From: Takakia lepidozioides
Taxonomy: Eukaryota; Plantae; Bryophyta
Direction of reading: 5' to 3'
DNA: 64,000 bases
Assembly: GCA_030704615.1 (NCBI GenBank)
Contig: CM060732.1
Coordinates: 4,836,001 to 4,900,000, forward strand
The translations under genes and the position numbers were made by a program. A model generated the notes under the pieces. That model did no database searches. It saw nothing but the letters and a program-made list of their open reading frames with translations, and had not been told where the DNA came from. Shown piece after piece: positions 18,430 through 61,100 of this stretch. The number at the start of each line of letters is the position of its first letter. Positions within the stretch are counted from its first letter, which is position 1.

Positions 18430-18560
18430 GCTAACATTTGTGTTGAACACTTGGAGCGCATCCACGATGCTTCCGCATTTTACAGACATGTTGACAATGG
18501 TGTTGTGTAGAAAAACATTCAGCTTGAATCCACTTTGGATAATGTGAGCATGCACCTGCA
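18430..18560 (-). pseudogene. PPR fragment
   Basis: QVHAHIIQSGFKLNVFLHNTIVNMSVKCGSIVDALQVF. Confidence 0.8.
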
Positions 18561-18591
18561 TTCTTGCTGCCACTCTACACACTGCTTTCTT

Positions 18592-29545: not shown

Positions 29546-30460
29546 TCCCAGAGTAACATGAGATCAATCAAAATTTGTTCAATGGGCCAATGAGGCGTTC
29601 ACCTGTGAGAAATTTTTTGTTCATTGCAAAAAAGAAATCCTGCAATGCGTGCACGGCTATTGCACCCATTGAACGGATGTGATTGAAGCCCAACTTCTGC
29701 CCGCATGTGCTTGGACATGTGCGGAGACACAGCATAAGAACAAATCATTTGCCTCCCAATCGATGCGGTCACCCTCAACCCATTCGAGAATTTAATTAAA
29801 TTTAAATGAATTTGAAGCCAATAATTAGGTTTACACCAGAGGCGGCTTCGCTCTACCACCACCGGAAGACATACTCCCCCTCAACATACCAAGGCGAGCT
29901 ACACGCATACTACGAGACTCGACCACCCGAACGTTCCCACCATCGGCCTACTCCGCTCGACAGACACAACAATCAGGAGGTGGTCTCGACCACTTCGGCT
30001 CGTCCTCAACCCAAGCAGCTCACAAGGCCCTGCTCTTCCAATGGACACCCCGCCACACACAGCAAATACGCATGCCCAGCTTCTCCGCCCTCTAGGTGGC
30101 CCAGTTGTATGCCCGTTGTTCTCTCCACACGCCGCTTTATTGACTGCAAAGCAGAGCATGGCTACTCTGCCTTCAGGCGCGGCCTGGTTTCCTCTTCGTC
30201 GTTGCTTTCACAACAATATGGGGCTCTTTGCACCGGACAGCATGTCCATATTCTCACAGACTGCACGAAGGTCTTTATGCTTCACTACCACCTCGAGTGC
30301 GAAGTGCTTCTTGTCATTACGATCTGCACAACCCCCGCCCCCGATCCAGGACTAGCGCTGCCCCCCGGTGTAAGCATGCAGTCAACGCTTCAGGGTTCCA
30401 ATCCGTGTCCAAGTACCTAAGCGCGCGATCAATATTTGCGAGTCTGGTGTTACCTACTTT

Positions 30461-32044: not shown

Positions 32045-32109
32045 ACCTGGGCAGATTTACATGATAGCATGCCATACTGGTGTAAAGAACAGCGACATGA
32101 GTGGTGATC

Positions 32110-33266
32110 GGTATATCCTCAAAGCTGAAATTGTTCCAGGAATCTTCAACCTGGAGACTGCCCTTTCCGACATGAATGCCAAATGCGGGAGCGTAAGCCA
32201 ATTGTTTGTCGAAATGATTAAACGAGCATCACCCAGGGCCCAGAGTAAGATCTCCATCTGTTGCAGCCGCTTAACTGAGCCCAACCCCGAGCTCGAATAT
32301 ATGCTACCAGGTTTTCAGAATTCTGTTCCTAATCTGACCTGCATGCCAGAAGTGCAAATGCAAGGACAGGCCATGCTCCTACTTCCAAATGCGGTACTCT
32401 CTTCCATGGACAGCCCGCCGGTCTCCCCAACAGTGACACCCTCTCCAAGTGTAGACTGTGCAGCATCAGTTGCACACACTAATGTCTCAGGTGCCAGGTA
32501 TACCAACAGCAGGAGCATGAAGGATGCATGCCAAAGGTCTGGCGATAGGAACGAACGAGTAATGACCTCATGGAGTACAGTGATAGCTGGAGATGCCGAA
32601 CATGGAGGCGTTTCTGTGGCTCTCAAGAAACCATGTCTTTGGAGAACCCTGATTGCACACTTTACTTTTACTGGAACTGCTCTCAGCAGGTTGCTGGCGA
32701 AGCTACTTGTTCAAGGGAATGCTAACTGTAGTCTTCAGATCACCCACCATTCTCACATTTTGCGGCAGGAAGAAAAAGTTGCCCATGAGGAAGAATCGAC
32801 ACATAATAAGATCCATGGACAGTCTGCAGGCCAGGCGAGAGGACATTGTAGAGAAGTTAATGCCTACGAAGGAAAGTGCTACTGTTTTGGCTGATTCACA
32901 TGCACCCAGTGTAGACCATGACAACTCCGAAACATCAGACCTAGCTGTATCAACAGCTTTGGCAGGAAAAGAGATTTTTCTTAACGGAATGACGGAGGTG
33001 GTGGTTGATGGTTCTCCAAGCGATTTTGGGGAAATCTGCAATCCTGGATATGCCCAGCATGGTTGTGGTAGGGAGGCTTTTGAGATGTCTGTACAAATGC
33101 AATGGGAAGGGGTGCAGCCCGGCAGTGTAACATTCATTTGTGTTCTCAGTACGTGTGCCACTCTTGCAACCCTGGGAAAGGACAAAGGTGTCCATGCTGA
33201 CATCATCAAAGCTGGAATCTCACCTGATATCATTCTGAAGACTGCCCTTGCTGATATATATGCCAT
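32110..33266 (+). pseudogene. Further PPR fragments interleaved with unidentified sequence
   Basis: ETALSDMNAKCGSV, TSWSTVIAGDAEHG and GYAQHGCGREAFEM..EGVQPGSVTFICVLSTCA..VHADIIKAG. Confidence 0.75.
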
Positions 33267-35370
33267 GGTTCACCAATTCCACCCTGAGGCTCAACTTTTT
33301 GTCAATGATTCTCCTTATGGCCTTCTAAGCAGCGATCTGGCATCCAGTCTCTGTCAAGGTAACTACCCCAACGTCTATCTCTTCCAAGTATTTGAAGTGC
33401 TCATATTGCCCCCATGTATATCACAGACCCTCTCTCCAAGACAGTGGCCCCCTGTTCCCACCATTGCATGTGCTAACCAGCAGGATTGTTTTTGTAAATC
33501 ACACCCCCAAGGACTGGTCCCTCGACTCTTTCCGACTCGGATCACCTCTCCCTTGTTACAATGATCTTTTACATTAACACCTTTTTTTTCCATAGCTGTA
33601 CCTGCTGGTACACCAGAATTCCAAATTATCTACTCTGCATGTGTTCCTCCTCTCAAATAATTGATAAGGCCTCTATCCATGATGCCACTCCTTCTATTTA
33701 CCTGCTGCTTCCTGATCATCACTCTAATCTTCATCCGTTTCTTCCAGGTTCAATCTCGAGGAAGGACTATGCTGCATTTTCGATTCTCTCTCCCCAAGCT
33801 ACTTGGGCATATGTACTCTCTCCATGTCAAACAATTCCGCACCAATGCTACTCTATATGCATGATTTTACTCCAAAAATTTTACTCCATGTTACCACTCA
33901 ATGACATCAAAAAACATCGCACTATCATCAGAATGCTCGCCATCCCCAAGGCGTATCTCATCCATCTACGATTCGTCATTATGTTCCTAACGTCTTTCAT
34001 CCACCTCCCATTCGTCCTGGTCTTCCAGACGTTTATCACCCATCCGCTATTCATCACACTGCACAGCCCACATATCAGGACATATGCAAAAACATCTATG
34101 CTTATGGGCCCTGTACATCTCTCCCCCAAACTCCCATGCAATGAATCGATTTTGCATTCCACTCACTACGTTTCACGTACCCACTACTCATCCCTATCCT
34201 CTAATATAATCCACCTGCACATCAAACCTCACAAACTACGGCTCAAACAATACCAGTACCTTCCCAGATTGTGGTTGTGGCACTCCATTTTACGTCATTT
34301 CACATCCACACCTATCCATTAACACATATATACCAATTTAACAACATAAGTTATGATAAATTTCCTCCATTACTTGGACTTCCCATGTACACTTAGCTAC
34401 TTGCTCCACTATTACCGATGACACCCCATACACTCTTATAATAGCTACCTCCCATGCACCCCTACTCCTCGGTCCCTCCAAATCCACCTCATAACCCACT
34501 GCCGGCATGGAAGATACCACCAAAAACCTCTGGTATCCAAACACTCATCTCACCATCCACCGTCCCACTTTAAATCCTATAAACTTGCCTGTGAAACACT
34601 TATCCTCCTTCGTTGCGGCGACATTCACCCAAACCCAGGCCCCTCTACCATCACCAGCATCATCCACAAACTTCCCAAGGACCATCAAGAAAGATATGAA
34701 TTATATTTCCAAAAAGACACCGTCTCGTACCTGCATATCAACACCTAAGCGACCACTTCTCCCCCTTTCTTCCCAACCCATCCACCAATATCCACAAACC
34801 CACACACCCAATCGCCACCTTTGGGCTTCCAGCCTGTCAAAAACCCTTCCCTAGTCAATGTCACCAGGAACTTAACACATACCCTATACAACACCTCATT
34901 TTCTCACTAATCATCGTCATCTCCCCAATACCCTCAATATGTGACGACTATTTTAGAAGCCAACCAGACTTAGACATATGCTCACTACTACAACAATTAC
35001 ATAACTTACCTCCGTTACCTCACAAATATCTAGCACCCCTACACTATCTGCATAACCTCCACGAATCTCTCAACCTGATGCAAGCCAAGCCCGGAGAAGT
35101 CCATATAAAATTAGGTGAACACCTGGCACACCCAACTGAAGCCACACAAGAGTTCAACACCATTGCCAACAAATTCCCATTTCTCTCCGAACAAATTCTC
35201 ACTGCCACCCTCCAAGCCAAGGAAGGCATACCTAGATATCAACCCCCACCCATGACAACACCACCTACCCCCTCACCTTGCCCACATAACCCACCAGAAC
35301 ATTACCTCCAGAACCTACTAGATCCTCCAGCCCCTCACACACCCCTCCCTCACAGAGTGCACACTCACTC

Positions 35371-35879: not shown

Positions 35880-37688
35880 ACACCAAGGCCCCAAGAGCCT
35901 GCCAAAACTTGGCCCTCGAGGACCCCAAATAGTCCCTCACACAAGTCGCCAAAGACTCCTCAAGCTCGCCAAATAGTGGCCTCCAAAGACCCCCAATAGT
36001 CCTCCAAACAGTCATCCAATGATCCAAATAGTCCTCCAAATAGTCCTCCAAGGACTCACTATGTTCCCAATGCGTTCCCAAATTCCCAATGGGTTCTCAA
36101 TAAGTTCCCAAAGTTCCCTAAGAATATTCTTGAAAATATGCCATACCCCAGTATTCCCTTGGGCCTATATGTATTTTCCTTGTATTTCCCTTGTATTCTC
36201 CTTAGGAATAACGATTTCCCCCTTGGAATAGCCGTTTCCTCCTGGCAATAGCCATTTCCCCCTCATAGAGTAGTTCATTTCCCCCTAAGCTTTAGCCACT
36301 TCCCCCTCTATTTCCTTGAGGCTTAGCCTTACCAAGCTAGGGTTTGTGCTCCTTGGAGCTCTATGCCTAATCCCCTCAAACATCCATGAATTCTATGGGA
36401 TTCTAAGGCAAATTCCCTTGATCTTCTTCATCTCAAGCTACTCAAGCTCACTTAGCAATGATTTTGCCACACAACAAGCTTCATCACTCATTGGAACTCA
36501 AAACCAAGCTTGTACCTCCTTTGGCAAGCCACCAAGCCTTGTCTCCTCTCAAGCCTTGATCATTCAAGCTCCCTTCACTTGCTAGCTCAAGAGCCACTCC
36601 TCTCAAGCTTGAAAGGGCAAAGCTCAAGCCAAAAGCATGCTCCACACATGCATCACCTCATACATAAGGGAATCAACTTGCTCCCTTCATCTTTTAGCTC
36701 TCCTCAAGCTTGAAGTTGGAAGCCAGCACTTGGGAAGCATGTTTGAATGATGATCTCTCTTCAAGGACTTCCCACAATTTGTTCTCCAATTAGCTCTTCC
36801 AATGCCCTAAGCTTGGCTCCACACCACCATGATTGGAAGATTCCTCCACATGCTCCCCTTCTAACCTCTTGAGCTTCCTAATGCTCCCTAAGTGCTTGCC
36901 CTTATTGTCTTCAAGCCCAAGCCTATGTAGCTCATTGGCTTCTCTTCCACAACATCCACATTTGAGCTTGCTTAACCCTAGATTGCTAGTGAAATGAGCA
37001 CCAACAATCATTTAGTCGCTCTCCACAAGTCATGGCATATACCATTGATTCCATAATGCATAGAGTTGATTCTCAAACCTTAAACTCCATGCTTCCACCA
37101 ACCACCTCTTTGGCAACCCTTGTCAAATCTTGTAGCAAACAAGCTCCTTCTTGAGCTCTCCAACACCTTGGTGTAACACCACAAGTACATTTCCTTGCAA
37201 TCCTTGCAAGCCTTGTGATACAGGAGCTAAATTCTCCTAGCTCTCAACCTCTCTTTAATATACAAGTGCAAAACTAATCCTTACACTCCGCACTCACAAG
37301 CATAAGGTTGACATCTTATTGTAGTGAAAATGAAAGTGAACACAATGGAAACACTCCACTCATAAATCCACTCAATCACATAAACTAAGTCAAGCCAAGG
37401 GCACATTTTCTAAGGGAATCCACCCTACAAAGCCCTCACCACACTCCCTCTCAATATCTAGAGCTATAGAGGTGGGAGAGGCTCATGGAGGCTAAACTAC
37501 AAGAAGATGAGCCCTCCTCAACCCTCACAAGGGGAAAACCCATCCCCATGTCCCAAGTGAGGCTTGACACCTCACTTGGCATGAGACCAAATGAAGTCCC
37601 AACACACAAAATATAAATATAAATATCCAAAATGTCCTGATTAACTAGAAGTAGGTAATTCTAGTTAACCATGACTAAAACCATGACA
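35880..37688 (-). mobile_element. LTR family A, inverted truncated copy
   Basis: Ends ...gttaaccatgactaaaaccatgaca at 37688, the reverse complement of the family A start; collinear with 38672-40600. Confidence 0.85.
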
Positions 37689-38671
37689 GGATCATTGGAA
37701 CAATGTACCGCCCTCATCAGCATCTCCTGCCCGTCTGGTCCAAATTTCCATTGTTTTCCTCCTCGATACTGATAGTAAGTAGATTGTTGCATGATGGCCC
37801 TCATAATGTCTTCTGTTGTTGTGGTCAGGATGTCAACGAAATGTGCCGCCGACAAAACTCAAAACCCATTTCTCCTCTTGTGAACCTGACCATGGTACCT
37901 GCGGGTTTGCAATGCATGTTGCGTAGTTTACCACAGTGGCAGCCACCTTGCTGGTGCGTGATCGATGCTTAAGAGGATAGCACATGGGATGCTTTATACT
38001 ACCTCTTGGTTTATGACGGGGATTGGTTGTGTCCACAATGCACTGCATAGTCGTATGGACACAACCATGGAAGGTCAAGAATAAACATGAGACCAAGGTA
38101 TTAGGATACCAATACACGAGATACCTAGCTCAAGTTCACAGATTACAAGAAGACGACTAATGATGGGGCTACCTTTGTACCTAGCCTCTTGATCTATCGA
38201 ATTTGAATACAATAAGAAGAGTTGTAGATGACTTATTAAGCTATTATTATGGCTATTATTACCTTATTATAGTTATCTGGAGCTTGGGGGGGTCACTCCC
38301 CGTATTTTCAAAACCACGTGAGAACAAATATAGGGTGTAGTTTATTTTTTTGAGGTAAATTTTAGAAAAGTTTTACTTCAAAAATATGGTAGGACAATAT
38401 CCTTTCATCCAGTTTTTTTTTTTTTTTTTAAATCACAAAAAATCCAGAGTTTTATCTAAAAAATTAATGTAATAAAGGGTTTTATCTAGAGTATAATATA
38501 TCCATCATTGTGAAGTTTCTCATATTTCATCCAACTCTAATCCATCATGATGAAATCTTCTCAAAACTTCATTAATTCATCAGGCTTATTTGATGAATAA
38601 GCCTGCTCTACCAAAATCTGGGGTCCTTCGATTATGATGTTTTTGAATTGGTTCTCCAAAGGTAGAGGTCA

Positions 38672-41600
38672 TGTCATGGTTTTAGTCATGGTTAACTAGA
38701 ACTACCTACTTCTAGTTAACTAGGATATTTTGGATATTTATATTTGTATTTTGTGTGTTGGGACTTCATTTGGTCTCATATGCCAAGTGAGGTGTCAAAC
38801 CTCACTTGGGACATGAAGATGGGTTTTCCCCTTGTGAGTGTTGAGGAGGGCTCATCTTCTTATAGTTGAGCCTCTATGAGCCTCTCCCACCTCCACAGCT
38901 CTAGGTATTGAGAAGGAGTGTGGTGAGGGCTTTGTAGGATGGATTCCTTTAGCAAAGGTGCCCTTGGCTTGACTTAGTTTATGTGATTGAGTGGATTCAT
39001 GAGTGGAATATTTCCATTGTGTTCACTTTCATTATCACTACAAGAAGATCACCTTATGCTTGTGAGTGTGGAATGCAAGGATTAGTTTAGCACTTGTGTT
39101 GGTATACACCAAAGAGTGAGAGAGCTAGGAAAAGCTCATGTATTTCACAAGGCTTGCAAGGTGTTGCAAGGAAAGGTGCTTGGTGAAGTTGCATGCACCA
39201 AAGAATTGGAGAGCTAGGAGAATTTAGCTCTTGTATCACAAGGTTTGCAAGGAAAGGTACTTGTGGTGTTACACCAAGGTGTTGGGGAGCTCAAGAAAGA
39301 GCTTGTTTGCCACAATATTTGCAAGGATTGCAAGAGGGAAGTCTTGTGTGTGTGGAAGCATGGATTCTAGGGATTGAGAATCATTTCTATGCATTATGGA
39401 GTCAATGGTGTGTACCATGGCTTGTGGAGAGCAACTAAATGATTGTTAGTACTCAATTCACTATCAATCTAGGGTTAAGCAAGCTCAAGTGTGGATGTTG
39501 TGGAAGAGAAGCCAAGGAGCTACATAGGCTTGGGCTTGAAGACAACAAGAGCAAGCACTTGGAGAGCATTAGGAAGCTCAAAAGGTTTGAAGGGGAGCAT
39601 GTGAAGAAATCTTCCAATCATGGTGGTGTAAAGCCAAGCTTAGGGCATTGGAAAGGCTTGGAGAACAACTTGTGGAAAGTCCTTGAAGAAAAGAGATTGT
39701 GGCTCAAGGCATGCATAGCAACTTCAACCATACATTAGCGTGTGACAAGACAAGGAAGGGGAAGGTGAAGCTCATGTATTCATTCCCTTTTGGCTTAAGT
39801 TTTGTGGTGGATGGTTGATCAAACAAGTGATGCTTATGTGGAGCATGCTTCCCAAGTGTGGCTTCCAATTTTAAGCTTGAGGAGAGCTAGAAGATAAAAG
39901 GAGCAAGTTGATTCCCTTGTGTATGAAGTGATGCATGTGTGAAGCATGCTTTTGGCTTGAGCTTTGCCCTTTCAAGCTTGAGAGGAGTGACTCTTGAGCT
40001 AGCAAGTGAAGGGAGCTTGAATGACCAAGGCTTGAGAGGAGACAAGGCTTGGTGGCTTGCCAAATGAGGTACAAGCTTGATTTTGAGTTCCAATGAGAAA
40101 TTGAGCTTGTTGTGTGGCCAATGCATTGCTAGTTGAGTTGGAGACAAACTTGAGTAGCTTAAGGTAAAGAAGATCAAGGGAATTTGCCTTGGTACCCCAT
40201 AGAATTCATGGATGCTTGAGGGGATTAAGCATAGAGCCCCAAGGAGCACAAACCCTAGCTTGGTAAGGCTAAACCTCAAGGAAATAGAGGGGGAAGAGGC
40301 TAAAGCCTAGGGGGAAATGGCTAAACCCTGGGGGGGAAATGAACTACTCTATGAGGGGGAATTGGCTATTCCTAAGGAGAATACAAAGGGAATACAAGGG
40401 GAATACGTATAGGCCCAGGGGAATACTGGGAGAATACTATGGTATATTCTTAGGAATATTCTTAGGGAACCCATTGGGAACACATTGGGAACATGGTGAC
40501 ATAAGAAGAGTCCTTGGAGGACTGTTTGGGGTCCTTGGAGGACCATTTGGAGGACCATTGGGAGTCCTTGGAGGACTATTTGGGGTCCTTGGAGGACCAT
40601 TTGGAAGACCTTTGGGAGTTCTTGGAGGACTGTTTTGGAGTCTTTGGAGGACCATTGGGAGTCCTTGGAGGACTGTTTGGAGGACCATTGGGAGTCCTTG
40701 GAGGACTACTTGGAAGACCATTGGGAGCCGACCCCCCCTTCCCTACCACTACCATCCAGCCCCCCCCAAGAGCCTGCCAAAACTTAGCCCTCGAGGACCC
40801 CAAATAGTCCCTCACACAAGTCGCCAAAGACTCCTCAAGCTCGCCAAATATTGGCCTTCAAGGACCCCAAATAGTCCTCCAAAGAACTCCAAATGGTCCT
40901 CCAAATGGTCCTCTAAGGACCCCAAACAGTTGGGTTCGATCCCCATCCGAGTCTAGGCTGTAGGGGGATACCTTTACTTGTGAGAGAAACATCTAGTATC
41001 ACTAAGTTCAACACTTGGTGTACTGTTTTGGAGTCCCATTGTGCAAGGATTGGGAACCTTAGTGAGATTGTTTGAGAGACATATTCTTGAGGGCTCATAG
41101 AGAGTTATTTGAGAGACCCTTGAAATGTAGTCTTGTCTATTATTCAAGCAAGAGAGTGTGGAGATAGGGTAGTGGGATGAGGGCATGCTGGGATTAGGAA
41201 TTGCTTTAGTCTCTCTTCCTTGTAGTCTTTCACCTTCTCTGTAGGCCAAAACATTTCCGTAGGTGGAGGCAAGAATCAGTCCGGGTTTGGGCTGGGGTGT
41301 CATTGCAAGAGCGACACTGTGAGTGTTTTTGGTGTGGGGGAGTTGTTGTCTTGATTTTCTTGTGTTTGGATCCCCTCCACACCTGCATGCTTGACTGTGC
41401 ACCATGTTAGCTTTGTGTGGGCGCTTGTTTTCATAGGAGGTTGGTCCGGATTTGATCACCGGTCAATCCTAGAGCGTGCTGTCGGTGAGGCTGTGGTAAT
41501 GACTAGTCAAACCATCATTGTTTCTCTTATGGTGAGGCTGGGTTGATGACCAGCAGACAATCGGAGTACTTGCGGTGGATACAGGTGCAGGTTTATGTTA

Positions 41601-41700
41601 CGAACCTAGTAGTCTAAGCCATAAGCCGCAACAGGTTCTCTACCCGGTTACCTTGTGGAAAGGGAGATTATAGACAAGTTTACAACAGGTGTGGTTGTGA
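38672..41700 (+). mobile_element. LTR family A copy directly upstream of gag, with an internal inversion
   Basis: TGTCATGGTTTTAGTCATGG at 38672; ends ggttgtga at 41700 (terminal CA missing). 40764-40925 is inverted relative to 11740-11845. Confidence 0.8.
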
Positions 41701-43440
41701 GTTTTCATCACGGAGGTGCCACCAGTTGCTGAAGAGAGTGCCGGTACGAGCACCAACGATACTAGTGGGTATACAAGACGAGGTGTGCGGTTTAGGCCAC
41801 CTTCACCTTCAGTGTCTTCTGAGGAAGGTTCAGACTCAGAGTTAGGAGGATTCTCGTCGAGGGTGCAAGCCATTTCCATGCCATTCTTGTGGGATACGAT
41901 GGAGGAAATATATGGAGCTACCAAGGGGCCACGTCGGTACTCTGGAGAGATGGGCACCATCGAGCTTGATGATTTCATACAGGAGTTTGATAGTTGGTGT
42001 GATTTGCAGCAGATGCGCAATCCACAACTATTTACGTCTTTTATGGTGTGGAAGGGGCTGTTTCAGCACCTTGAGGGGCCGCCCATGGATGACTACCATG
42101 AGTTTAGGCGGGGACATGAGGTGGAGATTGAGGAATGGCGGGTGTATTGGTCACCTGACTATGTCTCCATCACTAGAGACACAAGGGCAGTGGTGACACC
42201 GACAGCTACACCGACAGCCTCTACAAGCAGCAGTGGGATGTCAAGTGGAACAGGAGCTCGAAAGTCCACCCAAGCCCCTGCTACAGCACCAACACCCGTG
42301 CCTGCCTTTAAGCCAGTTGTGGAGTTCTTCGAGGAGTTAAGGAGAAACTACCAGGAAATAAGGACGGAGAAATTGCGGAGCTTGCAAGAGTTCCAACGAA
42401 AGCCTACCGAGAGTTTAATGGAGGCTTACACGCGCATGAGGCGATTGATAAATGTAACCCAAGGGGTTACGGAATCTCAAGAAGTCCAATTCTGATATGG
42501 GATATTGGACAAAGAGCTGATGAGAAGGGTGCGGGATGCAACTCTCCTACAAGTGGCCCAACCCACCTTAGCAAACGTGTTTTTGCTGGCAGAGCGGATA
42601 GAGCTCAATATGGTGGAGGAGCGAGTGGTCATGGTGGGTTTTGGTAAGGAGACACAACGAAGTGGGGTTCCTAGCCAACAACAACCACTACCCCAACGTG
42701 CTCAAGGCAACAAAGAGGCTTAGGCGAAGCCCAGGGAAGGACAGAGAGGATCTCAATTGCAGAGGTCACTTCCTTCATTCTCAGGCCAACAACAGTCGGG
42801 AGTGACATGTTGGGATTGTGGAAGACCCCACGTTAAGAGAGATTGCCCGAAGAGAGGCAAAGGGCCGGCACAGGCACAGCCTACACAACCACAATGTAGG
42901 CATTGTGGCAAGTATGGGCATGAAGAGACCCATTGTTATGACTTGCATCCTGAGCTACGGCCAGGCCAGTTCCAAGGGAACAATGGTGGCCGAGGACGAG
43001 GCAATGTATTCCAGAGAGGTAGAGGAGGCAGAGGTCGTGGTGGACGTCGTAACCAAAACCAAGGAGCACAGGGTCAAGGTCAAGGTCATGACCAAGGCAT
43101 GGTGGATAGGCTTGCCCAGCTAGAGCAATGTCTTCTACCATGGCCACTACTCATGTTGCGTCAGCTCCAAGGCCTGAGGTTCAAGCCCCACCTGCACAAC
43201 CTCCTATGCCTAGGGAAGACCAGATTGGTATGGGCTTCATGTGTGGAGCCGCACTTGCAGGACCATTGCATGTGGACTTTGCAGCTGCTATCACTCGAGC
43301 AGCAATGCGTGCTCCTGAGCCAAGAGGAGCGGATATGGATTTTGATCCACAAAGAGGGAAACAAGTCGGAAGACAAGACTTCCATAGTCTTTCACATTGG
43401 CTGAGACAGTGCCAACTATGCCATCGATGACACCCGCTCA
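41701..43440 (+). pseudogene. gag: Ty3/Gypsy gag (capsid, two zinc knuckles, RGG tract), disrupted
   Basis: PRRYSG..LDDFIQEFDSWC and FQRKPTESLMEAYTRM; knuckles CWDCGRPHVKRDC and CRHCGKYGHEETHC; stops at 42493 and 42721. Confidence 0.85.
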
Positions 43441-43779
43441 CCAAATGTGTCAGAGGTAGAGCCACGAGTGCCATTGAGGAGAGTTGGTATGGCTCGGGAA
43501 ATGCCAATGGGTGGTAGTGCAAAGCAAGGTGCAGCCAGTATATTGTTGGGGGCGGCTACGGCAATTTGCCAAGCTCCATTGTTTTCTGCCACGACAATTG
43601 CAATGCCGGGGATGCGGCCAGCTGCAGTGTTTAGATTGGCAGCTGCACTCTGTGAGAGTGGTGATGCATCGGCACTATCTACGGGGATAACGGATCAAGT
43701 GCAGTGCATGGATGCCCTGGATTCAAGGGTGAAGACAGTCACAGCTGCGCCATGGCAAGCGGCAGCTGCAAGGTTGCAG

Positions 43780-44230
43780 CAGTTGTCAACTAGACCAGCC
43801 ATTGAGCGTAGTATGGTGACTCCTGGGGTAGTCCTGGTGGACAATCAGGATGGGATGTTTCAGTTGGGTGGCCCAGCCGGGAGGAGGTATATGCCACTGC
43901 GGGTCTTGTTGGATTCGGGAGCACAGCCATTGATGTTGGGGAGAGCAGCAATTGCACGCTTGGGCCTTACAGAGGCGGATTTGGAGCCTTGTCCTTTCCA
44001 AATTCAAACATCTTTGGGCGGTTCAGAGAAGGCACGAGGGATTACACACCATGAGCTCTTCATTCGATTGCAGCCATATCATCCTACAGATGGCTCTGTC
44101 ATGAGAGCTAAAGCCATTGTTACGGACGCGATGTTTTATGATGTGTTTGTTGGTGGGGCTGTGTTATACCCAATGGGCTTTACTTTGGACTTTTGGGAGG
44201 AAACGACATCCTACAGGCCGGAATGACAGT
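43780..44230 (+). pseudogene. Retrotransposon aspartic protease
   Basis: VLLDSGAQPLMLG active site at about 43903, with YDVFVGG downstream. Confidence 0.85.
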
Positions 44231-44599
44231 CAGGGGATGGTCGACGTGCACTGCTCCTAGTGCGGTTTATTGGGAATGTACCGGTGGATCATATAAACAT
44301 GATGCCCACATTGGCTGCATTCTCAGGGGTGGTGGCTTGGGGTGGTGAGCTCTTGGAGGGCAATAGCCATGCAGATGATAGGCCACCACCTGATGAGGAC
44401 AAACAATTGGCATACAAGGCTGATTTGCTTTCTCATGTGCATGTTCATATTCCACTGTGGGGTACAGTTAGGAATTTGCATCGAGTAGCAGGCGAGTGTG
44501 TGCACCAAATATGGTAGGAGGCCTATCCATTGGTGAGTGAGGGGAGTTCAGTGACATCACCTGGACCTCCTCAGTTAGCTCCTTTGGACACAGTGCCCA

Positions 44600-45500
44600 T
44601 TATCTGGCAACCACCTGACTCAGGGATTTGTTTGCTAGACATGTTTGGAGGTATGAGCACTGGGCTTGCAGGAGTGTTGCAAGCAAGGATTAAAGTACAC
44701 AAGTACTTGTATTTGGAGAAGGATGAGATAGCTCGGCATATTTCTATGCGCCACATCGCCTTGCTCACACACCGGTATCCTGAGTTGTTGCCTCTCTCAG
44801 TAATTTAAGGGTATCAAAAGGCCTTGCCAACAGACATTACCTTGCTGGGGGCGAATGATTTGGACCGGCATGGTGCCATTGACTTGGTAATAGCTGGATG
44901 ACCTTGCCAAGGACACTCTCCTGCAGGTCATGGGAATGGCTTGCATGATGCATGATCGCATTTGTTTTGGGAGATGTTGAGAGTGTTGCATGACTTGCAG
45001 ACGTGACAAGTGCAACCTCTAGCATATATCTTGGAGAATGTTCCTCTTATGGGGGACTCTCGGGCCAGGGTTATGGCCAGTGTGCATCAGGTGCGGTCTT
45101 GGATTGGATCGGCGGTGCTATTGGATGCAGCAGCGGTGGGATCACGAGCGCATCGACCTCGATTGTGGTGGACCAATCTTGCACCACCAGAGCTGCTCAA
45201 GAGAGCATCGATTCCATTCAATGGCCACCCAATCGCACAGTTGAGGGCATTTTCGAGTGGGGCAGCCACATGTAGCCTTGCCTACGCTCATGGGCTTTCC
45301 CCTGTCTCATGTTTTTTGAGACAATGGTCCTAGGTTGATTTGGGACAGTGTGCTATAGCAATTGGTAGAGCCCAATGCGGATGAGCGAGAGCGGGCAATG
45401 GGATTTGTCATGGGCACTACAGCTGTGTCAGCTGTGTTAGAGGCATCACGCCGACAAATGTTGGGTCAAGCAATGGATCTAAATTGCTTGACATGGGTCA
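44600..45500 (+). pseudogene. C5 cytosine DNA methyltransferase domain inside pol
   Basis: Motif I LLDMFGGM; II YLEKD; IV DLVIAG*PCQGHS (Cys at 44905-44907); VI YILENV; VIII AHRPRLWWTN; IX ERERAMGF; X RQMLGQAMD. Motifs I-VIII share the protease frame. Confidence 0.92.
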
Positions 45501-45999
45501 TTGCATTGGCTTGTGCATGGCTGAACAACAGAGGTTGCAGACAGTGGTGGTTACTTCTGCACTCCCATTGGGTATTGCATCCTCTCTGCCTACCGGGACG
45601 GTTGAGGTAGTGAGTGGGGGCGAGTACATGATCATGGGGTGCAAACATCCATGGCAGATGTAGGATGAGATGCGGAAAGATAGAGTCCTTGGATCTCTCA
45701 AGTAGCAATATGAGGAGTGGGGAGAGCCATACACTGAGGATCAGTTGGAGGCCAAGGTGGCCAATGTTTTTGAAGAGGTTGAGAATGTTTCTTCCCTAGA
45801 GGATGTTCTCAAGGTAGCTATGGCGGAGCAAGTGGAGGCTACGCCACGGTCAGGGTGGGCAGATAGGGCCCAAGAGGTTGTTATCTAGCAACCAAATGAT
45901 GCGTCTCCTACCTCCAAGCCTGGTGTACCCAAGGTTGCAGTCACTGAGGACAACTGGGAACCAGATGTTGGACCTACAGTCACCGGAGGAGAGAGTCGA

Positions 46000-46495
46000 A
46001 AGATCCAGCGATTTCTAAGGGCTTATAGAAATTGCTTTGCCTTTGGTTTGAAGGATTTGGGGAGTTTGAAGGGCCAGGAGATTCATAATGATTTGGCAAG
46101 TGACACGCCAATTTTTTGAAGGCCCTACCGGTATAGTGACATGGAGAGGTCATTGATCCAGTCACGGACTATGGAGCTGTTCGAAGCTGGATTGGTGGAG
46201 TTGTCAGGCGGGGAGTATGCCTCGGCAACGGTGATGTTAGCTAAGAAAGATATCTATGGCAATTAGATAGAAAGAAGGATGTATGGGAACTATCGTCTTG
46301 TGAATTGTCAGACTAAGTCCGATAGATATGTCATGCCAACTCCAGAGAAGATCTTTGATGCCATTGGGCATGCAAAGGTGTTTAACACATTGGACTTGCG
46401 ATCCGGTTGCCAATCAAAGAGGCTGACAAGTAAAAGACGGCATTCTGGGGGATTGACCAACATGGGAAGGATTGCTTGTACTAATGGCGGTTCCT
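46000..46495 (+). pseudogene. Ty3/Gypsy reverse transcriptase N-terminal part; YxDD region and RNase H deleted
   Basis: PIF*RPYRYS..EAGLVELS..YASATV..KKD..RRMYGNYRLVN..DRYVMPTPEKIFDAIGHAKVFNTLDLRSG..KTAFW, then a jump to pre-integrase sequence. Confidence 0.88.
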
Positions 46496-46559
46496 ACAAC
46501 GAGCCAAGAGGTTCAAGTGGGAGGGGACTCACCTACTCCGAGTATGGGAGGATGGACGA

Positions 46560-47665
46560 GTGAGGATTGTGCCTCATCCAACACAACGAGCGCGATTGGT
46601 ACGCCATGCTCATGAGGAGTTGGGACATTTTGGGGTGTGACGCACTCATAGTTTGTTGCAAGGACAGTACTGGTGGTGGGGCATGCACACGGATGTGCAA
46701 TAGTTAGTGGCAAGGTGTGGTGTGTGATAGAGTGCGGGCTTCTTTCAATGCACCTACTCCACAATTGCATCATTTACCCATTATGGGTTTGGGATATCGT
46801 TGGAGTCTTGACTTCGCAGGCCCATTGCCACTAACGATTCGCCATAACAAGTATGTGCTGGTGATGGTGAAACATTTCTCCAAGTGGATAGAACTGGTGG
46901 CATTGCCTGAGAAGGCAAGTGATGGGGCTGCGTATGCATTCTTAGATCGAGTGCTTCGCCAATTTGGTGCTCCAGCCGAGGTACTCACGGACCAGGGGAG
47001 AGAATTCTTGGGGGAGTTTCAGGCTTTGTGTGAGCAAGCCTTGATAGACCACCACACTACTTCTCGGGATCATCCCGAGACTGATGGCCTGACAGAGAGG
47101 GTTGTACAAACAGTCAAGCGAGGCTTGCGCAAGTATGGCTTGCAGAAGGGACACTTGGGAGATTGGGACCTTCAACTACTTGGTTGGTCATGGGCAACAG
47201 GTTTAGCAAGCAAGCATTATTTGCCTCGTTCTCGCCTTATTTCCTTCTCTTTGGCCGAGAGCCAGATTTGTCTGCATCTATTTACAGAGAGACTGCAGTA
47301 GTCCTCAATCTTGATGATCCGGACATATGTGGACACAAGCATGTGCCCAGCGGGCAGAATTGTTCAAGAGAGTCATGCCTATGGCTTTTGATAACCTTGC
47401 TATTGCCCAACACCGAGACACATTGAGGTACGTCACTATACATGGAGGGGGATATCGGCCAGGTATTCAGCGTTTCCACCCTGGGGACTATGTGTATCTG
47501 CAGCAGACAACGCCTACGACTTTGGATGTCACAGCAGGACGTGTGATTCTAAAGGTCCGGGAGGTATTGCCTTCAGGAGTGTTGATTTTGGAGGGTCGAG
47601 ATGGCATGGTGTGGAAGGACCATGTGTGCAATTGTGCACCATGTCACCTTCCACATGTGGATGGA
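46560..47665 (+). pseudogene. Integrase (HHCC, DDE core, C-terminal module)
   Basis: HEELGHFG..YWW.GM..C..CD; WSLDFAGPLP; VLTDQGREF; HPETDGLTERVVQTVK; FSPYFLLFGREP; FHPGDYVYL. Confidence 0.92.
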
Positions 47666-47706
47666 TGATAGATCCCAACCTTGCAGTGGTACCTGCAGGA
47701 TTGCGT

Positions 47707-47839
47707 TGCATGCTATGTGGGCATGCTCGTGGTGCCGCAACCATGCTGGTGTGTGACAAATGCTCAAGGGGGTGGCACATGGGATGCTTAACACCGCCAC
47801 TTGGAGGTTCCTAGTGGAGAATGGTTGTGTCCACGATGC
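47707..47839 (+). pseudogene. PHD finger C-terminal to integrase
   Basis: CMLCGHARGAATMLVCDKCSRGWHMGCLTPPL, a 1-nt frameshift, then EVPSGEWLCPRC: a C4HC3 pattern with the conserved W. Confidence 0.9.
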
Positions 47840-48100
47840 CTTGGACATAGGTAGTGGGCATGACAATGGTGGAGTTGACAAGTGATCCAAGGTCTAGCTG
47901 GTGGGAGCTCAACGCCATGGATACTCAATTGAAAATCATGAATTGCAAGCAGGCGATTAACGATGGGGCTCTCGTTGCACCTGGCCTCTTGATCCATATA
48001 CTTTAGAGAATTTGGACATGTGCGATTGAAGACCAAGCGATGATCTTATTGAGATGGATGCTTGTTAGCTATCCGGTGTTAGAGGGACCTAATTACTAGC

Positions 48101-48653
48101 TAGGGGGGCGATTGTGGCATAGCTTTCTAGGATTGTGTGCTTAGAATGTATGGTGGACAGCGATGTATATTGTGGCACGATGCTTAGGTGCACGACAGCT
48201 GTCATGGTTTTAGTCATGGTTAACTAGAATTACCTACTTCTAGTTAACTAGGATATTTTGGATATTTATATTTATATTTTGTGTGTTGGGACTTCATTTG
48301 GTCTCATATGCCAAGTAAGGTGTCAAACCTCACTTGGGATATGAGGATGGATTTTCCCCTTTTGAGTGTTGAGGAGGACTCATCTTCTTGTAGTTGAGCC
48401 TCCATGAGCCTCTCCCACCTCCATAGCTCTAGGTATTGAGAAGGAGTGCGGTGAGGGCTTTGTATGGTGGATTCCTTTAACAAAGGTGCCTTTGGCTTTA
48501 CTTAGTTTATGTGATTGAGTGGATTCATGAGTGGAGTGTTTCCATTGTGTTCACTTTCATTATCATTGTGGCATAGTTTTCTAGGATTGTTTGCTTAGAA
48601 TGTATGGTGGACAGCGATGTATGTTGCGGCACGATGCTTAGATGCACGACAGT
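48101..48653 (+). mobile_element. 3' end of the retroelement: PPT, duplicated 86-bp TGTGG..CGACA segment and a family A LTR fragment
   Basis: aggggggcga, then TGTGGCATAG at 48113-48198, repeated at 48568-48653; the family A start occupies 48200-48566 between them. Confidence 0.65.
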
Positions 48654-49134
48654 CACCTGAAGTTCAAATATGATTCTAGTTATACATAGTGGATTGATGT
48701 TGGGACCATAATCTCAACAGTGACTATGACATTTGAACCATCTCAGAACTTGTACTCTTTAGATCCAAGTGATGCTGTGGCTTTGAATGAGTTCGTGGCT
48801 AATGAAAATTACTATTCTCTAGGTCCAGCATTTGACTTATGTATGGAATGTTGTTTGTGTACATGATTTGAAATTTTGTAATTATTTAAAAAGATGATTT
48901 AAAATAAGATCTAATTAATTGTTGAAAAAAAAATTATAAAGAAAAATAGGGTATTACGAAACAAAGGGTTTTACAATATTACCTAAAGATAGGATGGAAA
49001 AAAATGCAAAATTTAAAAAATATAGCATAGTATAAATATACATTTGTACGCACGTGATATGGAAAAAATACATATAGTGACCTCCCCCGTGATCTGGAGT
49101 TAGGGTGACCTAACAGCCACCAGTTAGGGGTCCA

Positions 49135-55100: not shown

Positions 55101-58100
55101 TGTGGGCTAAGTTGACAGCCTTGCAGTGGGTTGGTGGACATTGCTAGGTATATGAAGATATATGGGCATGGAGTCACATTTTCTGTCTGGTATGGTGCAC
55201 AGGTGTATGAGAGTTTACAGGCGGAAGGCTACTTGGTTGATTATGAGCGGATACCGATCACTGACGAAAAATCACCCAAGGAACGGGACTTTGATCTTCT
55301 GGTCAGCCCTTCCCTCAACAAATTTGTTGCTTCAGGGTAACTCTTTTTCAGGGTTTTTAAAGTGGAGAAATGGTCTGTTGAGATGGAGTAGGTTTAGGTG
55401 GGTGTACTGATATAGTTTGGGGTGCAGGTACAGCGGCTCTCCCAAGCTGATGTGGGCACAAAGCTGGTGTTCAACTGTCAGATGGGGCGAGGCCGCACGA
55501 CTACAGGCATGGTTGTTGCTACCCTTATCCACCTGCGTCGTACAGGGGTCACAGGTACTTGATTGCTACCCAAATCACATTGCCCTGATTGTCCATTGCT
55601 TTTTACAATCGAGGGCTACCCATGTGTTCTGTGAAGTAGGTGTTTTTGTTCAAAGCAATATGCAGTGGACCATCCGGTAGTTTGCCTCACTTAGACCTCA
55701 AGATTACACTTGAAGAGGAGTTCGTAGAGGCTGCATATCCCAGACCAGCATTGCTGCAGTTTCAAGATAGGCCTCACAGAGCCTGGGAACAAGGCCTGAG
55801 CCCAATTTTGAGTCCTTGGTTTCAAACCTCTTGCCTCTTTCAGGATTCAGTGAGGAGTACAAAAGTCACCAATGTCTAAGTCCCATGAAGACAAGAGAAA
55901 GAGGTTGCATCTGGGCATGTTGCAGGGCTGCCAAGGTCAAGCTCAATGGGGCAGATTCATGAATCGGTAGAAGAAGTGATGTACGACGTGCCAGACTCTG
56001 ATGAGGCACTTAGGAGAGGTGAATACACTGTGATTCGTAGCCTCATCCGTGTGTTGGAGGTAAGCCTCGTATGTAGGATGAGGCCTCTCTCTGTCTTTCT
56101 CAGGAATCTTTCTTCTCTGCTGTAAGCTGGCCTCCTTACTACATGAAGAATGATCGTCTGTGTAGTCTCTGGACCTAACCCTTGGAAAAACTTGCCATGG
56201 CAGGGTGGTGTGGAGAGCAAACGACAGGTTGATAAAGTCATTGACAAGTGCTCTGCAATGCAGGTACCTGCTCACACTTATGGCTGCAATTAATGTTCAC
56301 TGTCATGTTCCCCAACCAGGAATGACATACTTGTAATTTGTGGTTTTGACCAAGCTTCTTGGAGTGCAGGGCTGGCAGGTTCTCAATTTAGGCTTTGTCT
56401 ATGACAGGGTGTGAGCCAATGTATTCTGTGACTTTCTCGGCATGCGTTTTGCAGAATCTGCGGGAGGCAATTGCAGGGTATCGTAACAGCATTCAAAGAC
56501 AGGCAGATGAAAAGAAGCGAGAAGCGGGACTGTCCCTATTTGTGGAGTACTTGGAGCGCTATTATTTTCTCATCTGCTTTGCAGTGTACATTCATACTGA
56601 TAAATCCTCTTCAGGAAGTCGCCGCCAACCAGGCCAGGGTGGCTTTCAACAGTGGATGCGTGCACGGCCTGAGCTCTACAGTATCCTCCGCAGGTCTTTT
56701 CTCTTCCTAAATTTTTTTACCACGGTTGCTCTGATGGACTCTTTTATCTTCTGTGGTTACTTTGTGCTGTGACATCTTCTGTGTTGATTCACAGGTTGCT
56801 GAGGCGGGATCCAATGGGTGCCCTTGGGTATGGAAATAACCCTCCAGGCTTTATCAAGAAGTCAACGGCGGTTGGGAATGGGCGTCCCAGTAATATGGAG
56901 ACTGTAGTGGCCTCCAGAAATGGAGAAGTGTTAGGAAGGCAGACGGTGTTGAAGAGTGACCACTGTCCTGGTTGTCAAAGCATGTACCTCCCAGAGCGAG
57001 TAGAAGGGGCACCCAACTTCAGGGAGGTGGGAGGTTTTCCTGTGTATGGGGTAGCCAATCCAACCATTGAGGGTATTCGTGCTGTCTTGCATCGGGTTGG
57101 TGATGGAAGCAGTGGACGGCCAGTTTTATGGCACAACATGAGGGAGGAGCCTGTTGTCTACATAAATGGCAAGCCTTTTGTGCTACGTGAAGTAGAGCGC
57201 CCTTACAAGAACATGCTTGAATACACTGTACGCATGAGCCCCTTTATTTTATTGCCGAAACATAGAGGGTGGGTATAACAGATGTATTTGAATCTCTAAA
57301 TCCACAGCCACTTTGCACCTCCTGCATGCTGTGCCTTCCAGAAGTTAAACCTTGCATCACATGTATCAAGGTAATATGGTTGCTTTGTTTTTCTACATTT
57401 CCTGCTTTAGTGGGCCATAAGCTGTAAATGGCAGAATTTGGAAAGTTTTCGGTGTGTAATTGGTGTGACTAGAGCTTGACTTGAAGAAGGGTGCCGCCGC
57501 TGTCCTGCATTGGATCACGTAGGGCATTGACAGAGAGAGGGTGGAGCAAATGGAGGCACGGTTGAAGGAAGACATATTGTGGGAGGCTGAGCGATATGCA
57601 GGTGCCATCATGGTGAATCATGAGACAGATGATGGACAGATTTTTGATGCTTGGGAGCCCGTGAGCCCGGGTGCTGTACAGACACCCTTGGAGGTTTATG
57701 AGTGCTTAGAAGCTGAGGGCTTTTGTGTGGAGTATGCAAGAGTGCCCATCACAGATGGCAAGGCTCCCAAGAGCTCTGATTTTGGCACCCTTGCTTCTCG
57801 CATTGCATCTGCTCCTCGGGACACTGCCTTTGTTTTCAATTGTCAGGCAAGTCCTGAGACACGCTATTAGGGTCACGTCTTGTTTTTGCTCTCACGTCTG
57901 ACATCTCTAGAAGTTGAGGCTCTCTCTTGCCCCCTGATTGACTGTGATTTGGCTGGCCAGATGGGACGTGGGCGCACAACAACTGGGATGGTGATAGCAT
58001 GCCTGGTGCTACTCCGCTGTGAAAAGGGAAGACCACTGAGGATGCCGGGCTTGCTAGCACCAAGTTCAGAGGTGGATAGTGGGTCAAGCAGTGGGGAGGA

Positions 58101-61100
58101 GGCCAGTAGTGATACACCAATGGGCAGTCCCATGAACAAGATAGAGCGCCAGAAGTCCGTGGCAGGGTTTGTGATGGATGATATCCCTATTGTCAGGAAG
58201 ATAACACGCCTGCTTGAAAATGGTGCTGAGTGTCGTGAGGCGTGAGATGCTGTGATTGATCATTGTGCTGCAATGCAGAATCTGCGGAAAGCTGTACTTC
58301 ATTATCGGCGTGCATTCAACCAGCAAAACTTGGAGCACCATGCGAGGCGCGCTGCACTGAATCGTGGTGTAGAATACTTGGAGCGCTACTTGATGCTTAT
58401 TGCTTTTGCAGCATACTTAGGTAGTGATGCTTTTGATGGCTACTGCCAACAGGGCTGCTCTGGGACCTCTTTCAAGGCATGGATCCATCGCCGTCCAGAA
58501 GTGAGGCAGATGAAATGGAGCATGCGCTTGAGACCTACACGTGTGTTCACCATTACTGTAGGTTATTTTCAAGTCCATGCTGTACCTCAGTCTTGTGCTT
58601 GCTCATCTCAAACCCGGGCAAAACTATTGTAGCCAGTCTGAAATAGTTGGAGTTGTTGAGAGTGTAGTGCTTGTATTCTGGTGTTGGGAAGTCTGATCTG
58701 CAGGTGACTTGCGTTTACATTGGTTGTAGGAGGTTGAATACAAATCACCAGGGGAAGGTAATGAGGGAGATGCTGTGATGGAAGCAATTGTGAAGGCACG
58801 CAATGGAGGGTCCCTTGGGAGCGTTGCTATTCTGAAGATGTACTTTTTCCCTGGTCAAAAGACAACCTCTGACCATGTACCCGTTTCTGGTGCACCCCAT
58901 GTCTGCAAGGTATGCTTACCACTTTTTTGCTTGTAGAGTTGGATATAAGGTTCCCACGTCACTGATTTCGCTGGTCTTTAAGCATAACCTTGTAGTTGTG
59001 GGATGCAAGGGCACAGCCTCTTGAAATTGTGTGCTGCTTATTGCTTTGAAAGTTGATGCTTCTTTCTGCAAGTGTCAGGTTCAGATATGTGGGCTGGTCT
59101 GTTGCTAGTGTCCTGTTTCAATGATCAAGGGTAATTGCAGGATCATGTGGAGATTGTTTGAGTATGGTAAAAATGACCGGGTTGCGGGGGCTACTATGCT
59201 TGAGTGGTTGGAACAGGTGGAGGGTTTTCCGGTGCACAGCATGGCCACACCTACCATAGATGGGGCTAAAGCAGTGCTTTCCCATTTGAATGCTGAGCCA
59301 TCGTTTGTAGAACCTGGCCATAAAGCAATTGTGACAGACTTGCGGGAAGAGGCAGTGGTGTACATGCACGGTAATCCCTTCGTCCTCCGCGAGCTGGATC
59401 AGCCTGTCAGCACCTTGAAGCATGTTGGCAATTAAGGGCCTGTGGTAAGTGTTCGTGTATCTTCTCCTGGAGGCTAACCTCCCATTGCCTGCACATATCG
59501 TGTCATGTTGCATGTTATCTAGGTATCTCCTGGAAAAGATTCAGTTTTGGCAAGTTTCTCGAACACTCTCATACAGATTGGAAATTAGGCTGCACGTCTT
59601 TGAAAGGTGGGCGAGCACCCAAAAGTGCACAATTGCTGTAGGTGGAACAAATGGAGAGCAGGTTGAAGGAGGACATATTGGCAGAGGCTGCCCGATCAGG
59701 TGGTCGCATGCTGCTCCACAGGGAAGAGTTTAACCCTGTGACCCAGCAGTCAGACATAATTGGCTAAGGGGAGTCCATCACACGTGACGATGTACGAACT
59801 CCTTCTGAGGTTTATACTGTGTTGAAGGTGGAAGGTTATAACATAGACTACAAGCGCATCCCCCTGACAAGGGAGCGGGCTGCATTGGCCACTGACGTTG
59901 ATGCATGCACGGCGCGCTTGGATGAGTAAGTTTCCTCTGTTCAGGTTGTGGGATAATTTCTTATGCCTGTGACAAGGCTAGAATAAAATTGCTTTCTTCT
60001 ACTGTATATGTTATTATTAGAGTTGGTTATCTCTTTTTTCCTTGGTTACCCTCTCAAATTGGAGTCCAGGGCTAGTAGGCTCTTGACATATTAAAGAAGT
60101 AGTATAGCACACATTGTTTCTTTACATGTTTACTGTGATTGCTGGTCTGCGGGTAAGGACGGAATGCTCAGATATGTGGATATGTAGGTAGACAGCTGTC
60201 AGTACTTGGCTGTTGCTATGTGCAGGGGCCTAGGTGGCCTGGATCTCTTGGTGATGTGGTGCCAATGTAGTCAGTATATAGTGTGTTGATGCATGGCCAG
60301 TTATCTGAGGCAAGCGAAGGGGAAGCCGACCTGTTAAAACTTTGACATGAAGTCTAACTGGTGGTAATCACATATTGACAGGGCCGGAAAAGGGGGTGGA
60401 GTATTGCTTCATATCGCACACGGGTTTTGGGGGCGTCGCTTATGCCATGGCCAGCACTTGCCTTAGGCTACAGGCTGAAGCCCAGCTGGCCAGCTTGTCG
60501 GCCTCATCATCTAGAGTAACCGACATGCTTAGTCCCATCCTGTTGGCAGGAAATGAAGTGGTGGTTACTCGGCCTGTGGATGAAACCCAGGCTTTTCAGC
60601 AGGGTGATTACCGGGACATCTTGAGACTCACTCGTGTTCTAACCAGTGGCCCTGCCAGCAAAGCTGAGGTTGACATCGTCATTGACCGGTACGTACCTCT
60701 CATTACCTGTTTGGTTCAACGGCGACCTGTTGTATTTGATGGCGACCTGTTGGTTTAGGAAGCCATCCCCACCTTGTTTACACTTTAAGGAAGCTCACTG
60801 TCCGGATTGTCTGATCAATGTTGTGAGAAGGGAGGCTGGGCCTCTAGATGTTTCTAAGTCAAAGCTAGTCTCATACTGGTACAAGCTGCATACACTGGAC
60901 TAATGATTCTCCTGCGAAAGATTAAGACTGGGATATCATCTGTATCCTCTGCGTAGAAGCTTTATGCAGGAAGATAGCAGGGGGAAAGTCCAGTAGGGTC
61001 GTGCCAGGGGGACAATCAACATTTTACATACTCAGGGATAATATTATCTGGGCACTGTTGTTGTGGTGGTGAAGGTGTGGAGGAGCTGGCAACTTAAGTG

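Follow-up and report, generated by a model that had tools for sequence, protein, structure and literature searches.

A broken PHD finger behind the integrase of a decayed, DNMT3-bearing Ty3/gypsy element in Takakia lepidozioides

Ty3/gypsy retrotransposons carrying a DNMT3-like domain have been described as KnitGypsy-Dnmt3 in Klebsormidium nitens and as 'Gypsy-DNMT3' in streptophytes (PMC5890265), a name used again in bioRxiv 10.64898/2026.05.21.726589. The authors of the 2018 study suggested that such retrotransposon enzymes have a role on the element's own DNA (PMC5890265). The main text and three text supplements of that study contain no mention of a PHD finger, and its Fig. 4c may draw one. 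PHD fingers on transposons are already known. Gypsy-7a_cRei of Chlamydomonas has a PHD as accessory domain of a gypsy integrase; Gypsy-7a insertions are 2.6-fold enriched between genes and the PHD was proposed to limit harmful insertions (bioRxiv 2022.06.16.496473). Other bearers are Ginger1-9_HM (PMC2836005), Chlamys and CR1 (PMC8557442) and elements in a survey (bioRxiv 2021.11.30.470311). In chromoviruses such as Tcn1, Tekay, Reina and Chlamyvir a chromodomain, likewise a histone reader, follows the integrase C-terminal module (REXdb, PMC6317226), and the available portion of the REXdb plant classification text mentions neither PHD nor methyltransferase.

The window analysed here is a stretch of 64,000 nucleotides from Takakia lepidozioides (contig CM060732.1, positions 4,836,001 to 4,900,000). 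It contains a decayed Ty3/gypsy element (Table 1) with the coding order gag, zinc knuckles, protease, C5 methyltransferase, RT, integrase, C-terminal module and PHD finger. Comparison with the published description indicated a family matching KnitGypsy-Dnmt3 (de Mendoza 2018, PMC5890265), with the same gypsy domain set in the order PR-RT-RH-IN, an intronless and unrearranged DNMT3-like domain, and DIRS-like repeats, found here in the window element and at loci L034, L048 and L049. The family is thinly described but known. KnitGypsy-Dnmt3 was reported with the DNMT in its Pol ORF (PMC5890265), whereas here the DNMT precedes a conserved stop, on the side of Gag, and the range over land plants and a chlorophyte found here is absent from the available text of that report. 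Gypsy-7a differs in that the figure legend lists its PHD before the integrase, with no DNMT mentioned, while in this family the PHD follows the integrase.

Table 1. Features of the decayed element that carries the PHD finger (positions in the window).
Feature	Position	Strand	Remarks
Whole decayed Ty3/gypsy element	38672..48651	+	TG...CA ends; 4-bp target-site duplication GTCA at 38668-38671 and 48652-48655
Terminal repeat A1 (5' end)	38672..39037	+	95% identity to 48200-48565
Gag-like region	41701..42963	+	two zinc knuckles at about 42808-42936; interrupted by stops; Retrotrans_gag E 8.7e-4, below cut-off
Aspartic protease core	43894..44067	+	Asp_protease_2 E 8.1e-4, below cut-off
DNMT3-like C5 methyltransferase	44596..45517	+	broken by stops and a frameshift; homologous to the intact L016 domain
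Conserved in-frame stop TAG CAA CCA	45886..45894	+	between gag-PR-DNMT and RT-RH-IN-PHD
Reverse transcriptase 5' stub	45931..46496	+	core deleted at about 46488-46496
Integrase zinc-binding domain and catalytic core	46488..47321	+	rve E 3.9e-14; 64-80% to P0028; stops, frameshifts
Integrase C-terminal module (helix and SH3/Tudor-like barrel)	47327..47665	+	up to 83% identity to liverwort relatives
C4HC3 PHD finger	47707..47839	+	split over two frames near 47803; frame ends at 47852-47854
Purine run before repeat B1	48102..48108	+	polypurine-tract-like (inferred from sequence)
3' repeats	48111..48651	+	B1 48111-48197, two-base spacer, A2 48200-48565, B2 48565-48651; B1/A2 junction CA-GC-TG

The window copy is a dead element, because its RT catalytic core and RNase H are deleted, and is ordinary for its family. 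The deletion removed about 376 codons (residues 199 to 576 of the relative P0028); other copies continue through position 46488, where it lies. The gag-to-RT frame is interrupted by 16 in-frame stops, and the Gag-like region matches the Marchantia protein P0137 at 54%. The integrase C-terminal module has MLVIN_C as Atlas neighbour (0.92) and shows a beta-barrel in the predicted model of a relative. The repeats of the window element are split in the arrangement A...B-A-B, which is complete in L034, L048 and L049 as well, and 4-bp duplications were also seen at the relative loci L048 and L049.

Alignment of positions 45600-48700 with other copies (run X1) revealed 282 differing places, at 133 of which the window copy has A/T where the others have G/C, and the CpG observed/expected ratio was 0.45 in the window copy versus 0.57 in the intact L016. 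This A/T bias and low CpG are consistent with decay of methylated cytosines after silencing. The internal B1/A2 junction (window 48196-48201) consists of a right end CA, two bases and a left end TG, often as the palindrome CA-GC-TG, and the same junction was found in L006, L008, L017, L021, L033, L049, L068, L077, L079 and others; the strict pattern occurred at 26 of 66 loci with enough flank versus 5 of 923 control windows. The junction resembles a ready-made integrase cut site, and a purine run precedes B1.

Elsewhere in the window, a second, more decayed remnant of the same family, consisting of a PHD and 3' tail, lies at 37893-38197 (67% identity to 47687-47997), and the 5' repeat and leader of the element recur in truncated form at 10323-12525 and 35889-37691 (inverted), with 82-92% identity. 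A host gene with introns has exons at 56392-58245 that encode PTP-like phytase domains (Pfam E 2.4e-30); we take it to be paladin-like. The regions 17172-19720 and 30374-33564 hold arrays of repeat fragments with a 228-bp period and a further fragment joined to pieces of such repeats; judged by the translations, the repeats are presumably PPR-like and the further fragment polyphenol-oxidase-like.

The first-pass annotation had read a full C4HC3 motif behind the C-terminal module of the integrase. The eight zinc ligands are indeed all present where it placed them (C 47707, C 47716, C 47752, C 47761, H 47776, C 47785, C 47828 and C 47837), with the conserved Trp (W 47822) between the H/C pair and the final cysteines, and the integrase core and SH3-like C-terminal module stand upstream in the order it gave; the motif is whole only across a frameshift. 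The first five cysteines and the His share the frame of the ORF 47395-47814, which closes with a stop at 47812-47814, while the final W-x-C-x2-C is in a different frame, and the length of the motif, 133 nt, is no multiple of three. A second frame change lies near 47663, between the PHD and the C-terminal module. At both frame breaks the contigs of the organism's other copies depart from the window copy, so the breaks represent decay of this copy. The in-frame part matched positions 1-32 of the 47 in the Pfam PHD profile (E 2.2e-7; 31.3 bits, with the cut-off at 24). The window PHD is a genuine PHD finger, but broken. A chance motif was ruled out, as the C4-H-C pattern occurred once in the six frames of the 64-kb window and in 0 of 100 dinucleotide-block shuffles. 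A host PHD gene was also ruled out, the finger having no introns, lying inside the element repeats and being fused to integrase in relatives.

A search with the C-terminal module matched 210 proteins; the 120 matches listed include liverworts, Sphagnum, Klebsormidium and Pleodorina, and the nearest named relatives among them, at about 80% identity, are from Marchantia and Calypogeia. A PHD followed the module in 104 of the 113 listed proteins with a near-complete module, the other nine ending within 55 aa, and under a strict pattern all PHD ligands stood in one frame in 75 of the 120 listed relatives. In a further set the PHD followed the module in 15 of 21 proteins, and the median module-PHD spacer was 17-18 aa. 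An independent query made of RT-RH-integrase, without module or PHD, yielded 150 representatives at 50% clustering. The module was present in 55 of these, of which 50 had the PHD, two ended early and three were scored as having none, one of the three with a PHD overlapping the module boundary and two showing the start of a broken PHD. The intact locus L016 holds a 1369-aa gag-PR-DNMT ORF and a 1047-aa RT-RH-IN-PHD ORF, so that in intact relatives, L016 included, the PHD is present and in frame with the integrase.

The PHD-tipped family, in which the PHD ends the RT-RNase H-integrase ORF, is found in bryophytes, in Klebsormidium and as far as a chlorophyte. In Klebsormidium, P0080 and P0103 share its C-terminal module and PHD, and integrase-PHD matches from there are at 53-55%. 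The family is abundant in bryophyte-like genomes, with 15,574 contigs in one run. Proteins P0154, P0157 and P0158 carry integrase and DNMT without a PHD, and P0239 carries a PHD without DNMT in a protease-to-PHD ORF. The Marchantia proteins P0001, P0005, P0009, P0017, P0024, P0033 and P0042 are retrotransposon fragments annotated as host 'PHD-type domain' proteins, and such annotations would inflate PHD gene counts.

In a chlorophyte-type branch (P0105, P0098, P0100, P0111, P0165, P0252 and about 30 others) the DNMT lies between RNase H and integrase, and a tail of 200-400 aa with a Tudor-like stretch follows the PHD. The motifs of this tail are presumably amino-methyltransferase I and IV. It gave no Pfam match in nine proteins, and its Atlas neighbours were all under 0.9, one set being 26% MTS. 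By analogy with the EpiLTRs of bioRxiv 10.64898/2026.05.21.726589, this branch may represent an epigenetic element of three modules. P0289, P0306 and P0312 are gypsy elements with a PHD between RNase H and integrase, P0289 having also a Dam methyltransferase before RT; elements of this type fall outside the family and adjoin it in some trees.

In phylogenetic trees of RT-RNase H a strongly supported branch divides the family from the other sequences (SH 0.96-0.996 in two trees, 92.7, and 100/97). The group with chromodomain-bearing elements was separate at 94/91 in the tree where the family branch had 100/97, and a forced union of the two was marginally rejected (p-AU 0.0385, the groups having been named after earlier trees were seen). 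The references were database matches rather than a curated set, two of them (one in the 100/97 tree) with a chromodomain, and the trees were thinned to 148, 46 and 29 rows and built from proteins with full RT and RNase H, which excludes the window copy. No chromodomain was present in 28 scanned proteins of the first outgroup set; the chromovirus-like references came from a neighbouring element. A profile search for the Chromo domain gave no match in the window pieces, in 21 long relatives or in L016. By these trees the family is a Ty3/gypsy clade apart from the chromoviruses, and a chromovirus with a swapped reader was rejected on them together with the marginal p-AU value. The proposal that the PHD sits where chromoviruses carry the chromodomain was correct as to position, with the PHD in frame with the integrase in intact relatives, and is not supported in so far as its wording makes the element a chromovirus. 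Chromoviruses combine their chromodomain with two LTRs, whereas this family combines a PHD with split A...B-A-B repeats.

The methyltransferase domain of L016 passes the Pfam DNA_methylase threshold and has DNMT3A/B as best PDB matches; among 103 family DNMT domains the catalytic motifs PC and ENV were found in 95 and 90, respectively. ORF1 of this lineage has the DNMT at its end, separated from the downstream PHD by a conserved stop and about 1,000 residues. The stop after the DNMT reads TAG CAA CCA in the window copy, TAG CAG TTA in L016, and occurs in two further contexts. The pattern stop-CAR-YYN was found in 22 of 32 sequences with enough upstream DNA (five loci were too near a contig end), a decayed form in two and none in eight; many loci are repeat assemblies of related samples, so that the 22 sequences count as four contexts, not 22 events. 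Seven of the 22 have CAR-YYA and 15 CAR-YYC, and 16 are in the RT frame, the other six being offset by later frameshifts. Among 47,061 background stop triplets, CAR-YYA followed 0.2% and CAR-YYN 0.7%. At 45886-45894 no variant was listed among 180 contigs of run X1, while positions 45881 and 45897 vary, and the stops at 45661, 46264, 46638 and 46701 are private to the window copy. Of the DNMT proteins without RT, 22 of 25 extend 73-168 aa beyond the DNMT. The window has another stop followed by CAR-YYA, at 44224; it was attributed to chance, a Trp codon standing there in all four relatives found.

UAG-CAR-YYA is the readthrough context of TMV, about 10% efficient in vivo, and readthrough candidates in rice gypsy elements are cited in the same source (PMC2754532). 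As in TMV-type (type I) readthrough (PMC2754532), a short product lies upstream and the polymerase downstream, and three of the four lineage contexts are identical to it in the 3' context; one family lineage departs from it with CAR-YYC then ATG. In the CAR-YYC lineage an in-frame ATG comes right after the stop where shown, an arrangement that would also allow reinitiation. Some relatives (P0064, P0150 and P0154) are one open ORF without a stop. Downstream of the stop no conserved RNA structure was found in the four contexts (z-scores 0.60, -0.39, -0.12 and 0.59), which fits a context-only signal. The conserved stop is probably a gag-pol readthrough signal, and SIRE1 is, we presume, a comparable case. 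In the published texts that were searched, neither an integrase-terminal PHD in a DNMT3-bearing gypsy element nor readthrough in this family was found; we regard the TMV-type stop context, of which no published description was found, as the most useful addition of the analysis. Older work, a REM1 paper and a 2003 survey of gag-pol recoding, may bear on its novelty.

The residues of the finger were surveyed in 88 distinct family PHDs chosen by their C/H/W pattern. In KDM5A PHD1, D312 binds H3R2, P331/G333/W335 hold H3A1 and L308 contacts K4 (bioRxiv 715474). The equivalent of D312, the Asp after Cys3, is kept in 83 of the 88; within the P-x-G-x-W pocket, which matches P331/G333/W335, 83 keep the Pro and 82 the Gly. 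Recognition of methylated K4 requires a cage with a conserved Trp (PMC3214078). The residue two before the His is Gly in 82, Ala in five and Phe in one, and never Trp. This is presumably the position of the cage Trp, as in ING and BPTF. An H3K4me3-reading PHD was rejected, a Trp being absent there in 88 of 88. In readers of unmodified H3 an acidic residue ahead of Cys1 reads K4me0; in the family the position three before Cys1 is Gly in 32, Asp in 31 and Glu in four (Gly in the window copy), and the close relatives among bryophytes lack an acidic residue there. Only 9 retain the second R2 aspartate, and a Met stands three before Cys3 in 79.

The best 60 of 97 PDB sequence matches included ATXR5, KDM5 PHD1, BAZ2A/B, DPF2/3, BHC80, UHRF1, AIRE and CHD4, and none was ING, BPTF or TAF3. 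A predicted model of the natural relative P0007 superposed on the PHDs of BAZ2A, BHC80 and ATXR5 with 1.0-1.6 A rmsd, indicating a PHD fold (model quality moderate, pLDDT 63 and pTM 0.34 overall, pLDDT 78-87 over the PHD), and most close structural neighbours were solved with unmodified H3, judged by structure titles. dN was below dS in six of six close PHD pairs (0.06-0.07 versus 0.10-0.29), the pairs having been chosen for an intact motif. The readers of unmodified H3 (ATXR5, KDM5A/B PHD1, BAZ2A, BHC80, UHRF1) resemble the family PHDs in fold, in identity of up to 44-45%, in the R2 Asp and in the A1 pocket, whereas the family lacks a conserved K4-site acidic residue and a conserved second R2 aspartate. 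The A1/R2 residues and the PDB neighbours bear out the view of the PHD as a conserved histone-reader module of the type that binds the H3 tail, and the family PHD likely binds the unmodified H3 N-terminus. With a variable residue three before Cys1 and a second R2 Asp in few of the family PHDs, the affinity could be low, or binding may be blind to K4 methylation by analogy with UHRF1, whose PHD binds H3 via A1/R2 irrespective of K4 methylation (PMC3214078).

We consider it rather probable that the window PHD is the decayed integrase PHD of a green-lineage, DNMT3-carrying gypsy element whose working copies would tether integrase to unmethylated H3, with the DNMT as a separate module set apart by a readthrough stop. 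In such copies ORF1 would give Gag, protease and DNMT in bulk, so that the DNMT would be packaged at Gag level, and occasional readthrough of UAG-CAR-YYA would give RT, RNase H and integrase-PHD. The PHD would then likely anchor the integration complex on H3 tails without K4 trimethylation and bias insertion away from H3K4me3-marked promoters, while the DNMT would likely act on the element's own cDNA rather than be guided by the PHD. Against this stand the relatives in which the PHD is dispensable (P0154, P0157, P0158), the eight of 32 sequences without the stop signal and the relatives with one open ORF. A general anchor on the H3 tail or nucleosome, using A1/R2 only and making integration more efficient or aiding retention in the nucleus while selecting no chromatin state, would agree with A1/R2 determinants that are kept while the K4-site acidic residue varies, and with UHRF1, which binds so (PMC3214078) and is among the structure matches. 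We hold it to be unlikely, as most close structural neighbours were solved with unmodified H3 and the equivalent of the K4 contact (L308 of KDM5A) is Met in 79 of 88, which argues for a constrained K4 site. That the PHD binds no histone at all, serving as a structural or protein-interaction module for integrase assembly or as a binder of DNA or RNA ends, appears very improbable: apart from the zinc ligands, what is conserved are the residues with which KDM5A and UHRF1 bind H3 A1/R2 (bioRxiv 715474, PMC3214078), even if a screen of 123 human PHD constructs found H3 binding in only 31 (PMC6979384) and three relatives do without the PHD.

The first-pass annotation had also paired the PHD with the methyltransferase as reader and writer, in analogy to ADD and DNMT3. 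The ADD domain reads H3K4me0, and the PHD is of a type that would suit such reading; DNMT3-like and PHD domains co-occur across a deep clade though the DNMT changes place, and in the chlorophyte-type RT-RH-DNMT-IN-PHD ORF both could share one chain if the junction were uncut. A PHD that guides or switches on the element's methyltransferase at H3K4me0 chromatin is nevertheless improbable, and this part of the annotation is not upheld for the present lineage. RT, RH, IN and the conserved stop lie between a DNMT in ORF1 and a PHD about 1,000 aa away, so that there is no ADD-like adjacency; the two domains uncouple in relatives (DNMT without PHD in P0154, P0157 and P0158, PHD without DNMT in P0239), and the finger is one canonical PHD rather than an ADD. 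In yeast, the KnitGypsy-Dnmt3 domain on its own produced no methylation, a result that its authors call inconclusive (PMC5890265). The ADD-plus-DNMT3 analogy appears weak for this element, and since the DNMT changes place within the family and the PHD remains attached to the integrase, a role of the PHD in integration is favoured over it. The chromatin-targeting idea itself appears plausible for the family PHD.

The probably leaky stop bears on the question raised in 2018 of what purpose a retrotransposon's own DNMT3 serves, and production of the DNMT at the level of Gag would suggest that it acts within the particle on the DNA of the element. Tentatively, this old green-lineage clade may follow a two-tier epigenetic strategy, possible though somewhat doubtful as a whole, in which the leaky UAG would load DNMT3 into the particles at Gag level to pre-methylate the element's own cDNA, and the integrase of the rare readthrough product, its PHD reading unmethylated H3K4, would drop the methylated copy into non-promoter chromatin; if so, no integrase before it would have been shown to find its targets through a PHD reader of H3K4me0. 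Should the 55-residue PHD steer integration, it would represent a second, independent histone-reading route to target choice beside the chromodomain, and one that would avoid active promoters by reading the absence of a mark.
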